From Anaerolineales bacterium (GTDB taxonomy: Bacteria; Chloroflexota; Anaerolineae; Anaerolineales; Villigracilaceae): 64,000 nucleotides of DNA. Positions 56,681 through 62,529 of the stretch are shown here, piece after piece (the stretch's first letter is position 1; each line of letters begins with the position of its first letter). The stretch covers positions 18,085-82,084 of the forward strand of contig JBAUMB010000055.1 in assembly GCA_049578465.1 (NCBI GenBank), read 5' to 3'. Made by a program: the position numbers and the translations under genes. Below the pieces are notes generated by a model. That model had not been told where the DNA came from, made no database searches, and saw nothing but the letters and a program-made list of their open reading frames with translations.

Positions 56681-57709
56681 ATGTTTTCTCGTTTCAAAAG
56701 TGCTGCACGTATTCTTATTAAGGGCGAACCTAAAAAGAAACAACGCAATCCGATTCCTGCCATCACGCTTGATGAAATTGCAGAGATCAAGCAATTCTTC
56801 CCGCGCGAGAAATTTTTCATCTTTGGTCATGCGCGTTCTGGGACGACGCTTCTCATGCGGCTTGTGCGCTTGCACCCCGAAGTGCATTGCGATTATCAGG
56901 CACACTACTTCACGCGCAAACCATTGTTGAAATCACTGGTCGATTCACTTGAGATCGAAGAATGGCTGACGCGCAAATCGAATCGTTGGAATCACGGGCG
57001 CGATCTCTCGCCGCTTGTTCTGCGTGCATCAGCGGACATCATCATGGAACGCGAAGCGGCTCGCGAAGGCAAAATGATTATTGGCGATAAAAGCCCCTCA
57101 TCCATGATTCACGGTCAAGCTGTGCGTGACATGCAAGCGGTCTATCCCGACGCAAAATTAGTTTACATCGTCCGTGATGGACGCGATGTATTAATCTCGG
57201 AACGTTTCCGTAACTTTGTGGAAGATTCAAAATTCCTGACATCCGAAGATAAACGCATCATCGAAGAATTACGCAAGGATCAGAATCAATTTACAAATGG
57301 CACGCGCTCGATTTTCACCGAACCATTTATCCGACGCGTGGCAAAAGGTTGGATTACGAATTTGCAGGAAATCGAAGACGAAGGACAACGATTGTTCGAT
57401 AAAAATTATTTTTCCTTGCGATATGAAGATTTGCTCAGCGACTCATTTAATGAAATGACGCGGTTATGGAAATTTCTCGCCGTGAAAAAAGTTGATAAAC
57501 CGTTATCGAAGATGATCAAGATAGAGATGGAGTCAAACCCGGATGAGGAGTGGCAGGCTCAACGGGATGAAGGAATCGCTTCGTTCCTTCCGAAAGGTCA
57601 GGCTGGTAATTGGGAGAGACTTTTCACGGCGAGGGATAAATCCGTCTTCAAAGAAGTTGCAGGTGAGATGTTAATTAAGTGGAAGTATGAGAAGGATTTG
57701 AATTGGTGA
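56681..57709 (+). CDS. sulfotransferase (PAPS-dependent)
   Basis: FFIFGHARSGTTLLMRLV (5'-PSB loop), YIVRDGRDVLIS (3'-PB position). Confidence 0.8.
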   Translation: MFSRFKSAARILIKGEPKKKQRNPIPAITLDEIAEIKQFFPREKFFIFGHARSGTTLLMRLVRLHPEVHCDYQAHYFTRKPLLKSLVDSLEIEEWLTRKSNRWNHGRDLSPLVLRASADIIMEREAAREGKMIIGDKSPSSMIHGQAVRDMQAVYPDAKLVYIVRDGRDVLISERFRNFVEDSKFLTSEDKRIIEELRKDQNQFTNGTRSIFTEPFIRRVAKGWITNLQEIEDEGQRLFDKNYFSLRYEDLLSDSFNEMTRLWKFLAVKKVDKPLSKMIKIEMESNPDEEWQAQRDEGIASFLPKGQAGNWERLFTARDKSVFKEVAGEMLIKWKYEKDLNW

Positions 57710-57712
57710 AAG

Positions 57713-58702
57713 ATGAAATTTCTCATTGCTGGACTCGGCTCGATTGGCCGCCGACATTTTCGCAACCTGATTTCGTTCGGCGAAAAAGATATTGTCTTGC
57801 TTCGTTCTCATCGCGCCACTTTATCCGATGATGAACTAGCTGGCTATCCCGTTGAAACAAATTTAAATGAAGCGCTAAAAAAATATAAACCTGATGCCGT
57901 TATCATTTCAAATCCAACCGCATTGCATCTGGATATTGCAATTCCGTCTGCAAATGCAGGCTGTTCGATTTTGATTGAAAAGCCGATCTCGAATTCGCTA
58001 GACCAAATTGATCAACTCGAATATGCGCTTGCAAAAGGCGGCGGGCAACTGCTCGTCGGCTTTCAATTCCGCTTTCATCCGACTTTGCAAAAAGCTGCGC
58101 AATTGTTAAAAGAAAATGCCATCGGCAAACCGCTTTCTTTTCACGCGCATTGGGGCGAGTATCTTCCCGATTGGCATCCGTGGGAAGATTTCAAACAAAG
58201 TTATGCGGCTCGATCTGATTTGGGCGGCGGCGTCATTTTCACTTTGACTCATCCGCTCGATTATCTCCGCATGTTGCTCGGTGAAGTGGATTCGCTTTGG
58301 GCTTTCACCGGCGCGTCGAATCTCGGACTCGAAGTGGAAGACACGGCGGAAATTGGTTTGAAGCTGAAGAGCGGCGCGCTCGGCTCCGTTCATTTGGATT
58401 ACAATCAACAGCCGCCCAGTCATCGCTGGGAAATTGTCGGCTCGAACGGCACGATGAAATGGGATAACGCCTCAGGCAATCTGGATGTGTTTTCAGCAGA
58501 GAAAAAAGATTGGGAAACATATCAGCCCCCCGCGGGCTTCGAACGAAACGTGATGTTCATCGAAGAAATGAAACATTTCATTGCCGTTGCCCAGAAAAAA
58601 GAATCGCCTATCTGCACATTAGACGATGGCAAACAAGCTTTGCGATTAGCGTTGGCGGCACATGAGTCTGAAAGAAGAGGAACTTTAGTAAAATTGAGTT
58701 AG
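57713..58702 (+). CDS. Gfo/Idh/MocA family sugar oxidoreductase
   Basis: MKFLIAGLGSIGRRH Rossmann motif, ILIEKP motif, 329 aa. Confidence 0.85.
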   Translation: MKFLIAGLGSIGRRHFRNLISFGEKDIVLLRSHRATLSDDELAGYPVETNLNEALKKYKPDAVIISNPTALHLDIAIPSANAGCSILIEKPISNSLDQIDQLEYALAKGGGQLLVGFQFRFHPTLQKAAQLLKENAIGKPLSFHAHWGEYLPDWHPWEDFKQSYAARSDLGGGVIFTLTHPLDYLRMLLGEVDSLWAFTGASNLGLEVEDTAEIGLKLKSGALGSVHLDYNQQPPSHRWEIVGSNGTMKWDNASGNLDVFSAEKKDWETYQPPAGFERNVMFIEEMKHFIAVAQKKESPICTLDDGKQALRLALAAHESERRGTLVKLS

Positions 58703-58705
58703 GAG

Positions 58706-60724: not shown

Positions 60725-60734
60725 AACAATAGTT

Positions 60735-60743
60735 TGCTATAAT
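60735..60743 (+). promoter_or_regulatory. extended -10 element TGCTATAAT upstream of sat/cysC
   Basis: TGn + TATAAT at 60735-60743, embedded in the inverted repeat GAACAAT-N11-ATTGTTC (60724-60748). Weak -35 TTTCAA at 60714-60719. Confidence 0.4.
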
Positions 60744-60804
60744 TGTTCCTTGCTTTTCAAAGCCAATCCGCAGAGTTTCTCTGCAAATCTAATAGGAGTT
60801 TTTG

Positions 60805-62529
60805 ATGTCGAAAGCCAAATTGATTTCCCCGTATGGTGGTAAAAAATTAGTCAGCCTTGTTGTGAGCGGAAAAGAACGTGATGATTTGCTTGCTCACGCT
60901 GCCAAATTGCCCTCGATCAAAATCAGCATGCGCAATTTGTGCGATCTGGAATTGCTCGCCACCGGCGGATTTTCTCCGCTGGATCGCTTTATGGGCAAAG
61001 CGGACTATGAGCGGGTTCTGCACGAAATGCGTCTGAGCGACGGAACGCTTTTTCCGCTTCCCATCACGCTGACCGCGGATCCCAAAGAATTGCCGACCGT
61101 TGGTGATGATATTGTCTTGCGCAACGCCAATAATGATGTGATCGCGGTGCTGACCCTCGATGAAGTCTATCACTGGGACGCGGAGACCGAAGCCGCATTG
61201 GCATACGGTTCCACCGATTCCAAACATCCGATGGTTTCCGAGATGGCGCGTTGGAATAAAGTCTGCATCAGCGGACCGATGAAAGTCGTCAACCTGCCGA
61301 AGTATTATGATTTTATCGAATTGCGCCGCACGCCCGCGCAGGTGCGCGAGATGCTTGAGAACATGGGGAATGATAATGTCGTCGCATTCCAGACGCGCAA
61401 TCCATTGCATCGCATTCACGAAGAATTGACCAAACGCGCTGCGGCTCAAGTTGGCGGCTCGCTGATTATTCATCCGGTTGTCGGCATGACCAAGCCCGGT
61501 GATGTGGATCATTATACGCGCGTCCGCATTTACAAAGCATTGGTGGATAATTATTACGACAAGAAAAGTACCTTACTTAGTCTTCTGCCATTAGCGATGC
61601 GCATGGCGGGACCGAAAGAAGTTCTACTTCATGCCATCATTCGTCGCAATCACGGCGCGAATCATTTTATTGTCGGGCGCGATCATGCGGGGCCGGGAAA
61701 AGATTCAACGGGCAAGCCGTTCTATGGTCCGTATGATGCGCAGGATAACATGCGTAAATACGAGCATGAATTGGGCGTGAAGATGATTCCGTTCGAGGAA
61801 CTTGTTTATCTTCCGGATGAAAAACGTTACGTGGAAGGCAAGGATGTTCCGCAAGGTGCGAAGACGCTCAACATTTCCGGCACGCAGGTGCGCGATGATT
61901 ATCTTGCCAAGGGCAAGCTGCTGCCTGATTGGTTTACGCGCCCCGAGACCGCTGAGATTTTGCGCGAGATGTATCCGCCGCGCCATAAGCAAGGATTTTG
62001 TATTTGGTTTACTGGCTTGAGTGGTTCGGGAAAATCAGCTACTACACAGGTGCTGACATCTTTGTTGCTCGAGCGTGGACGCGAGATTGCCATCCTCGAC
62101 GGCGATGTGGTTCGCACGCATCTTTCCAAGGGACTCGGCTTTAGCAAAGAAGATCGCGATACGAATATCATGCGTATTGGTTTTGTCGCCGGTGAAATTG
62201 TACACGCCAGCGGCGCAGTGATCTGCGCGGCGATCAGTCCGTATCGCGCGACGCGCGAAGAAGCCCGCAAGATGGTCGGCGAAAATTTTGTGGAAGTTTA
62301 TATGGATACACCCGTTGAAGTCTGCGAGCAACGCGATGTGAAAGGCTTGTATGCCAAAGCGCGTCAGGCGATGGTGGATGGACACCCGATGGGATTCACC
62401 GGCGTGGATGATCCCTACGAGCCGCCGATTGATCCGGAGATTTCGCTCAAAGGTTACGGCGCAACTCCGGAAGAGAACGCTCGTCACATCGCTGCGTATC
62501 TTGAAGAGCAAGGATATTTGTTGAAATAA
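60805..62529 (+). CDS. sat/cysC: bifunctional sulfate adenylyltransferase / adenylylsulfate kinase (PAPS synthase, Sat-CysC fusion)
   Basis: [20 protein letters not shown] (ATP sulfurylase). C-terminal [16 protein letters not shown]-loop, [15 protein letters not shown] (APS kinase). AGGAG lies 6 nt before ATG 60805. Confidence 0.92.

Follow-up and report, generated by a model that had tools for sequence, protein, structure and literature searches.

Does a gene for sulfate activation that lies within a glycan locus supply that glycan with sulfate, or does it serve the general sulfur metabolism of its host? The question is raised by a 64-kb stretch of DNA from an Anaerolineales bacterium (contig JBAUMB010000055.1; "the window" denotes this whole stretch of 64,000 nt), in which a gene at 60805–62529 joins an ATP sulfurylase to an adenosine 5′-phosphosulfate (APS) kinase and shares a glycan locus with three sulfotransferase genes, here called ST1, ST2 and ST3. 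An original prediction, made from the sequence of the window alone, had described these genes as a self-contained sulfation system inside a glycan island. We find that the fusion gene belongs to an envelope glycan locus inherited vertically across the Anaerolineales, and we consider it probable that the 3′-phosphoadenosine 5′-phosphosulfate (PAPS) made by its product mostly feeds the cytoplasmic sulfotransferases encoded there, with a possible further use in cysteine synthesis. The order-wide linkage of fusion and sulfotransferase genes is a new result and is the part of this work most worth following.

By predicted activity, the gene at 60805–62529 (+ strand) encodes a bifunctional PAPS synthase. 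Pfam searches of the open reading frame (ORF) 60802–62529 returned PUA_2 (E = 5e-48), ATP-sulfurylase (E = 2e-82) and APS_kinase (E = 7e-57), which place a PUA-like domain at ~60826–61293, the sulfurylase at ~61318–61968 and the kinase at ~61990–62448. The product scores 829.5 bits against the NCBIfam equivalog NF004040, bifunctional sulfate adenylyltransferase/adenylylsulfate kinase (cut-off 669), and 188.3 bits against TIGR00455, APS kinase (cut-off 138.7). Residues 35–572 align with the SAT/APS kinase of Aquifex aeolicus (PDB 2gks; 745 bits, E = 4e-223), and the ATP-sulfurylase active-site motifs QTRNPxHRxHE and GRDHAG are present and aligned with those of 2gks. In the kinase domain the P-loop GLSGSGKS, LDGDxxR and AISPY are intact; by these motifs the domain is predicted to be catalytically competent, unlike the inactive regulatory copy found in fungal sulfurylases. 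The fusion of a sulfurylase to a kinase with an intact P-loop was therefore correctly recognized in the original prediction, and with all catalytic motifs kept in a functional-looking enzyme the route from sulfate to PAPS appears to be encoded. Within the Sat–CysC fusion family the enzyme is unremarkable.

Translation likely starts at the ATG at 60805, as chosen in the original prediction, because a GGAG is located 8 nt upstream and an identical product of 574 aa is called on a public assembly contig (the same gene call on an 8.5-kb Logan contig). The GGAG (60791–60805 region) and a promoter-like element, TTCAAA-17-TATAAT with an extended −10 TG (60715–60743, + strand; a consensus match only, with 10/12 matches in a consensus scan), both fall in an 81-nt gap upstream of the fusion, the only sizeable gap of the block between 56213 and 64000. 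This arrangement fits a fusion gene that heads its own transcription unit.

We scanned genomes, one per species, for relatives of the fusion and compared the best 80 of more than 583 loci. Nearly all of these 80 loci come from metagenome-assembled genomes (MAGs) labelled Anaerolineales, Anaerolineae or Chloroflexota, and the fusion is 85–97% identical across them. Proteins of the window and of its closest relative (locus L002) were mapped onto the loci; downstream counts refer to the 52 loci whose flanking sequence reaches at least 7.5 kb, upstream counts to the 49 in which it reaches at least 6 kb. Downstream of the fusion, a short-chain dehydrogenase/reductase (SDR), a cytidylyltransferase-HAD fusion and NeuB are each present in 52 of 52 loci, and a PMT-type GT-C glycosyltransferase and a Sulfotransfer_1 gene (ST4) in 51 of 52 each; ST4 is often succeeded by a Capsule_synth gene and a further sulfotransferase (ST5). 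Past the end of the window this block is inferred from relatives, which are 83–97% identical across the genes compared. Upstream of the fusion, we detected ST3 in 41 of 49 loci, a Gfo/Idh/MocA oxidoreductase in 46 and a membrane protein of the type encoded at 58706 in 25, a number to which divergence may hide additions. A sulfotransferase gene lies within 10 kb of the fusion in 60 of the 61 informative loci, which is the conserved physical linkage to be expected of a dedicated PAPS supply.

Synteny across the order and the smooth base composition of the window (GC content 41–52%, without a step) show that the locus is vertically inherited and not a mobile island; a recent horizontal transfer finds no support in them. 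The genes between 56681 and 62529 are tightly spaced and co-directional (gaps of 4, 4 and 81 nt), and no terminator-like site was found in the gaps of the block. The sub-operon proposed for this interval in the original prediction thus holds with respect to spacing, direction and synteny and fails with respect to its boundary: at loci L067 and L070 the upstream block is missing and unrelated genes (a PGI-like protein, a peptidase, two-component regulators) precede the fusion, which is there the first gene of the invariant glycan block downstream. Moreover, a second GT-C frame opens at 62539, 10 nt after the fusion stop, and runs past the window end, so that the locus does not stop at 62529; this gene had been missed.

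At L002, where the fusion is 97% identical, the downstream block spans 11764–21456 and reads PMT-type GT-C, SDR, CTP_transf_3+HAD fusion, NeuB, ST4, Capsule_synth, ST5 and GT2; the same block is seen in ~50 other loci. It constitutes a second nonulosonic-acid pathway (KDN/Neu-like, phosphatase-dependent) located beside more sulfotransferases. Two loci labelled Syntrophothermus sp. (L020) and Bacteroidota bacterium (L058) carry the typical fusion/GT-C/SDR block at 87–88% identity; these labels are probably MAG binning errors. At L005 an extra gene of ~1.2 kb (5153–6370) separates ST3 from the oxidoreductase, with similar gaps in L006, L009, L010, L024, L054 and L063; its 405-aa product has no Pfam match and is detectable in 4 loci only.

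The three sulfotransferase ORFs of the window, with every motif quoted for them, are present as originally described, and all three pass the cut-offs of Pfam profile searches. They split into two lineages, (i) ST1 and ST2 and (ii) ST3 together with ST4 and ST5 of relatives. ST1 (24244–25146, + strand) and ST2 (41347–42213, + strand) are paralogs (E = 5e-20) of a lineage similar to heparan-sulfate 3-O-sulfotransferases. Against Sulfotransfer_1, ST1 scores 45.3 bits (E = 9e-12) and ST2 60.1 bits (E = 3e-16), for gathering cut-offs of 22 to 27. ST1 carries the 5′-phosphosulfate-binding (5′-PSB) motif ERCGTTW, with Arg at the position of the 5′-PSB Lys, a putative Glu base within QKEIHYF, and the 3′-phosphate-binding (3′-PB) motif LRNPIERTFS; the corresponding motifs of ST2 are MKGGTTSF, RKEIKFF and LRNPVDRAYS. 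In PDB searches ST1 matched 3rnl (E = 3e-25) and heparan sulfate (HS) 3-OST-1 (E = 2e-11), and ST2 matched 3rnl (E = 2e-28), HS 3-OST-3A (E = 8e-25) and NDST (E = 7e-19). Alignments of both with heparan sulfate 3-OST/NDST enzymes (E = 8e-25 to 6e-7) extend over most of their length and superimpose the catalytic Glu of E-x-H/K-F-F. For these two proteins, the label "carbohydrate-type" that had been given to all three is a fair description of their predicted class; it does not extend to ST3.

ST2 is the last gene of a Wzm-Wzt-Capsule_synth-methyltransferase-ST2 block (36762–42213) that is kept in three other assemblies and whose Wzt bears Wzt_C. The block resembles an ABC-transporter pathway equipped with a module that caps the chain end, sulfate or methyl being the possible terminal signal. 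In the closest relative the ST2 ortholog is 89% identical, and the block is located ~20 kb upstream of the fusion on one contig of 1.02 Mb. In the window the distance to the fusion is 19 kb for ST2 and 36 kb for ST1, beyond the 10-kb flanks compared. We dropped a reading of ST1 and ST2 as variable members of the locus, as both fall outside these flanks and the ST2 block is conserved in the closest relative. Public records hold the exact ST2 and ST3 proteins as "MAG: sulfotransferase [Anaerolineales bacterium]".

ST3 (56681–57709, + strand) represents a cytoplasmic lineage found Anaerolineales-wide, with 4038 homologs matched. It scores 85.7 bits in Pfam against gathering cut-offs of 22 to 27 (Sulfotransfer_3, E = 7e-24; Sulfotransfer_1, E = 3e-18) and contains the 5′-PSB motif ARSGTTL (SGTTLL), followed by GDKSP, the 3′-PB motif VRDGRDVLIS and a C-terminal PKGQAGNW..FT. 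In an alignment of 37 homologs R52–T56, R165, S173 and G306 do not vary and K305 hardly does, a pattern that speaks for an active PAPS site. We compared the family profile with PDB sequences: residues 243–324, including KGxxGxW..FT, match cytosolic SULT1 (SULT1A1-type; E = 4e-8), and residues 45–173 match tyrosylprotein sulfotransferases (TPST; E = 2e-5 to 6e-4 with the profile, 3e-4 to 1e-3 with the single sequence), with which ST3 has RSGTTL, K-[DS]-P and VRDGR in common. Assignment of ST3 to TPST was rejected on two grounds: the position of the catalytic Glu (second E of CGEE) is occupied by Q73, which is invariant in the ST3 family, and similarity does not cover the whole domain, since residues 45–173 alone align and the C-terminal half is SULT-like. 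ST3 groups with ST4 and ST5, and all three end in …YEKxxNW. Judged by its motifs, ST3 is one of a lineage-specific group in which features of tyrosylprotein and of cytosolic sulfotransferases are combined; its acceptor is not readable from sequence.

A Kyte–Doolittle scan, made without a dedicated signal-peptide predictor, found no hydrophobic segment in ST1, ST2 or ST3, in line with the signal peptides reported missing from the start; the three enzymes must therefore work in the compartment in which PAPS arises, the cytoplasm. In the mechanism that we propose, APS would form from sulfate and ATP in the ATP-sulfurylase domain and be phosphorylated to PAPS in the APS-kinase domain, with two ATP consumed overall. 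PAPS would be used by ST3 in the conserved block, by ST1 and ST2 further upstream and, as judged by synteny with close relatives, by further ST3-type sulfotransferases past the window end. Sulfate esters would be placed at the cytoplasmic face, either on nucleotide-activated sugars, on lipid-linked sugars or on the growing chain; export could proceed by Wzx-like, Wzm/Wzt or small EamA-type proteins, and GT-C glycosyltransferases would carry out attachment outside the membrane. The constant companionship of NeuB and the cytidylyltransferase-HAD fusion suggests that the glycan carries nonulosonic acid as well as sulfate. Our direct observations are the enzyme families, nucleotide-binding motifs that are intact, a location in the cytoplasm, and the order of the genes with its conservation; from them we infer the glycan acceptors, the stage of sulfation and PAPS supply as the main role of the fusion.

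The genes between ST3 and the window end provide further elements of this pathway. The small membrane protein encoded upstream of ST3 (56213–56662, + strand; 149 aa, ~4 transmembrane (TM) segments in a TM scan; 19 nt from ST3) is of EamA/DMT type (E = 1e-5 for Pfam EamA, under the cut-off; 22.2 bits for SLC35F, cut-off 21) and adjoins ST3 in 23 of 81 related loci; we regard it as a candidate flippase or transporter. A role of this EamA/SLC35-like protein as PAPS exporter was discarded as unnecessary, all sulfotransferases being cytoplasmic. Starting 4 nt after ST3, an NAD(P)-dependent oxidoreductase of sugar or inositol type (57713–58702, + strand) contains all three Gfo/Idh/MocA Pfam domains, as predicted for this neighbour of ST3, and is closest to inositol 2-dehydrogenase-like and UDP-GlcNAc 3-dehydrogenase-like families, in both cases under the equivalog cut-off.

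The polytopic membrane protein at 58706–60724 (+ strand) combines an N-terminal multi-TM domain with a soluble C-terminal domain of ~260 aa that carries four invariant Cys. It is one of an Anaerolineales family whose 645 homologs are all annotated as hypothetical and lack a Pfam domain; D41-D42-W43-Y44 is invariant in the first loop, after TM1, and FWWQVSWR at the end of the last membrane helix is invariant save for a nearly invariant Ser. We found no evidence for a GT-C relationship at the sequence level with Pfam, NCBIfam, a profile against PDB sequences or hhalign against the neighbouring PMT-type GT-C. An AlphaFold2 (AF2) model of high confidence (predicted local distance difference test score (pLDDT) 87, predicted TM-score (pTM) 0.85) nevertheless supports a GT-C fold: each of the 12 best matches that Foldseek returned from the PDB is a GT-C enzyme (STT3/OST, PglB, ArnT, Pmt4; E = 4e-6 to 6e-3, probability 0.99–1.00), at TM-scores that are low, 0.28–0.37. 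"GT-C-like", the term originally chosen for this protein, is hence appropriate at the level of fold only. The FWWQVSWR motif sits roughly where oligosaccharyltransferases have WWDYG. The gene that follows the fusion (62539–64000, + strand, 5′ part in an open frame to the window end) encodes a second GT-C glycosyltransferase of PMT/ArnT type, whose full-length ortholog at L002 (83% identical) scores 33.2 bits against Pfam PMT (cut-off 22.7).

Several findings weigh against PAPS supply for glycan sulfation as the main role of the fusion. Pfam scans of the 64-kb window detected neither a sulfate transporter nor a 3′-phosphoadenosine 5′-phosphate (PAP) phosphatase, so that "self-contained" was too strong a term; the literature reports no sulfated glycan from Anaerolineae; and the fusion is the most conserved gene of its block, its upstream neighbours being 30–88% identical, as is expected of a housekeeping enzyme. 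With respect to ST3, carbohydrate sulfotransferases match over 34 residues alone, around the 5′-PSB loop (E = 8e-3), the closest relatives of known structure modify tyrosine residues of proteins or else small molecules, and the AlphaFold model (37 close homologs, pLDDT 49.6) is too poor for a fold search or for locating a catalytic base. An assimilatory role alongside glycan sulfation is plausible, because sat, cysH and sir are reported to occur widely among MAGs of wastewater Chloroflexota (PMC10746286). Carried further, the fusion could be the general, perhaps the only, sulfate activator for cysteine and methionine by way of PAPS or APS reductase, with its position in the locus a frozen accident or its PAPS put to secondary use; the strong conservation of the fusion, the presence of sat in 53 of 55 Anaerolineae MAGs (PMC11748557) and a promoter-like element directly upstream that could permit separate expression all agree with such a function. 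We nonetheless consider it rather unlikely, as sulfotransferase and glycan genes stay linked to the fusion in 60 of 61 loci, with varying, unrelated genes on its other side, an assimilation gene is adjacent in none of the loci examined, and order-wide synteny of this kind with an unrelated pathway is rare for housekeeping genes. A dual role, moreover, is compatible with glycan sulfation. Pfam scans found no sulfur-assimilation genes in the window, and a cysH-type ECG[LIV]H signature had no match in a real ORF of the window and the 81 loci, its sole match falling outside real ORFs; with a crude motif scan and 10-kb flanks, this is a weak negative.

Two further alternatives concern what ST3 modifies and where the modified sugar goes. 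Instead of a sugar, ST3, and with it ST4 and ST5 of relatives, might act on protein tyrosine, on a lipid or on a small molecule delivered by the neighbouring oxidoreductase, for instance one that resembles inositol or derives from a keto-sugar. Motif by motif, the N-terminal half of ST3 aligns with TPST (ARSGTTL/PRSGTTL, GDKSP/NKDP, VRDGRD/VRDGRA) and the C-terminal half with SULT1, the best matches of the oxidoreductase are inositol dehydrogenases, and the match to the Nod-factor enzyme NoeE is weak and sub-threshold (20.6 bits, cut-off 500). An invariant Gln at the position of the TPST catalytic Glu, the cytoplasmic location of ST3 and the glycan genes on both of its flanks in more than 40 species make a non-sugar acceptor improbable, and sequence family is a poor predictor of sulfotransferase acceptors. 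The other alternative is a side branch similar to the Arn pathway. ST3 and the oxidoreductase would modify a single sugar in the cytoplasm; polyprenyl phosphate would serve as its carrier, the EamA-type protein would flip it, and either of the two GT-C enzymes would transfer it on the outside, possibly to a surface protein, as happens with the sulfated lipid-linked glycans of S-layer proteins in haloarchaea. The genes are arranged (GT2 … EamA-ST3-Gfo-GT-C-PAPS synthase-GT-C) in keeping with arn operon logic, and the two GT-C proteins, one with oligosaccharyltransferases as best fold matches and one of the PMT family, would suit such a transfer. Set against this are a nearby GT2 (53000) that has no TM segment, the low Foldseek TM-scores, and detection of the 58706-type protein in only about half of the upstream loci, though divergence may hide it; neither donor nor acceptor can be inferred from the genes. 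We take the branch to be rather unlikely.

How does the locus, read as a source of PAPS for glycan sulfation, compare with known systems? The Aquifex enzyme has the same domain order (PUA-like, ATP sulfurylase, APS kinase) and both proteins fall in NF004040, but the P-loop reads GLPCAGKS in Aquifex and GLSGSGKS in the window. The physiological role of the Aquifex bifunctional enzyme is unsettled; the window fusion differs in that its gene is located in a glycan locus beside sulfotransferases. In rhizobia (NodP/NodQ with NodH or NoeE, for Nod factor) and mycobacteria (CysNC with Stf), as in the window, a PAPS-forming enzyme is tied to cytoplasmic sulfotransferases that decorate an exported glycoconjugate, a parallel already drawn in the original prediction. 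NodPQ and CysNC, however, contain the GTPase-coupled CysD/CysN sulfurylase, whereas the window fusion joins a homo-oligomeric Sat-type sulfurylase to CysC in a chromosomal, order-conserved locus that is no accessory of symbiosis or virulence.

In the Synechocystis xss (synechan) cluster, sulfotransferases are likewise embedded among polysaccharide genes, with export of Wzx or ABC type, and sulfation is presumed to take place at the cytoplasmic face (PMC8205485). The xss gene list lacks PAPS-forming genes (PMC8205485), whereas the window locus, which occurs in Chloroflexota, has the fusion and adds nonulosonic-acid genes and several GT-C enzymes. For the individual sulfotransferases, ST1 and ST2 keep the 5′-PSB motif, the Glu of E-x-H/K-F-F and the 3′-PB motif RNPxxRxxS of heparan sulfate 3-OST/NDST and of the bacterial structural-genomics protein 3rnl; unlike 3-OST/NDST they are soluble cytoplasmic bacterial proteins, and their acceptors are certainly not heparan sulfate. 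ST3 has the RSGTTL, K-[DS]-P and VRDGR of TPST1/2 and the (R)KGxxG(D/N)W..FT of SULT1, but it lacks a membrane anchor, has Gln in place of the TPST Glu, offers no assignable SULT catalytic His and matches at modest E-values (4e-8 to 1e-3).

In haloarchaea, sulfated N-glycans arise when a lipid-linked glycan is sulfated in the cytoplasm and transferred to a surface protein by AglB, a GT-C enzyme of the STT3 family. The pairing of sulfotransferases with GT-C proteins in the window parallels this system, although there is no evidence of protein glycosylation in Anaerolineales, and the 58706 protein resembles STT3/PglB at the fold level only (TM-score ~0.35), with WWQ in place of the oligosaccharyltransferase WWD. 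Relative to all of these sulfation systems, the window combines the ST3/4/5 lineage, the pairing with nonulosonic-acid genes, a Sat-type fusion and order-wide conservation in Chloroflexota.

Glycan sulfation is thought to be rare in bacteria, and the conserved block suggests that a group without any described sulfated surface glycan makes one; we found no literature that links Anaerolineae or Chloroflexi to sulfotransferase-based glycan synthesis. Anaerolineae are abundant filament formers in granular-sludge systems. Chloroflexi are abundant in wastewater reactors (PMC9942424, PMC10746286), and glycoconjugates that bear sulfate commonly occur in the extracellular polymeric substances (EPS) of aerobic and anaerobic granular sludge, with producers and pathways unknown (PMC10483923). 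The block of PAPS synthase, sulfotransferase, nonulosonic-acid and GT-C genes provides a concrete, clonable candidate for their origin. In salt-marsh Anaerolineae, sat is present in 53 of 55 MAGs and a complete dissimilatory pathway in one only (PMC11748557); a PAPS-synthase role would explain this pattern, rich in sat and poor in sulfate reduction, and "sat" in Anaerolineae MAGs should not be scored as evidence of sulfate reduction. A more far-reaching proposal, which we offer tentatively as possible, is that the order Anaerolineales makes a conserved sulfated, nonulosonic-acid glycoconjugate, attached outside the membrane by STT3/ArnT/PMT-like GT-C enzymes, possibly to proteins of the filament surface, and that the near-universal "sat" of Anaerolineae MAGs, routinely counted as potential for sulfate reduction, is chiefly the PAPS synthase for it. 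If true, the glycoconjugates of sulfated, sialic-acid-like character in granular-sludge EPS (PMC10483923) would gain an identified producer and pathway, and the view that among bacteria only cyanobacteria make sulfated polysaccharides would be contradicted (PMC8205485); the same paper states that sulfotransferases had not been found in extracellular polysaccharide clusters of other bacteria.

The remainder of the window is consistent in strand and content: a single glycan locus, co-directional on the + strand, fills nearly all of the 64 kb, preceded by genes of tRNA modification and repair (TsaE, TsaB-like, RimI and UDG by Pfam) in the first 3 kb. Pfam detected nucleotide-sugar enzymes, GT2 and GT4 glycosyltransferases, methyltransferases, Capsule_synth (KpsS/C-like) and TagF-like transferases, a nonulosonic-acid set (NeuB/CMP-transferase), a Wzx-like flippase and a Wzm/Wzt ABC exporter whose Wzt has a C-terminal carbohydrate-binding domain. 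Many large polytopic membrane proteins are also encoded, several of no recognized family, and at least three of the membrane proteins have GT-C evidence (11401, 58706, 62539). With at least two export routes and at least three such proteins, more than one glycan or attachment step is likely; the island with one product that had been assumed thus gives way to a vertically conserved locus with several outlets.

Two parallel gene triads are located at 13858–17698 (GT2, LPG_synthase_TM and a 655-aa membrane protein) and 24244–28630 (ST1, LPG_synthase_TM and a 791-aa membrane protein). The 655-aa and 791-aa proteins, neither of which matches Pfam, are paralogs of each other (27% identity, E = 9e-50), and ST1 occupies in its triad the slot held by GT2 in the other. 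A second pair of paralogous polytopic membrane proteins, ~670 aa each, is encoded at 28668–30671 and 32173–34191 (32–33% identity, no Pfam domain); between them lies a divergent methyltransferase-GT2 fusion on the − strand (30673–32100). The first ORF of the window (8–760, perhaps cut by the window start) matches GINT1_N (E = 9e-45), the N-terminal domain of glucosamine inositolphosphorylceramide transferase 1, an unusual family for a bacterium.

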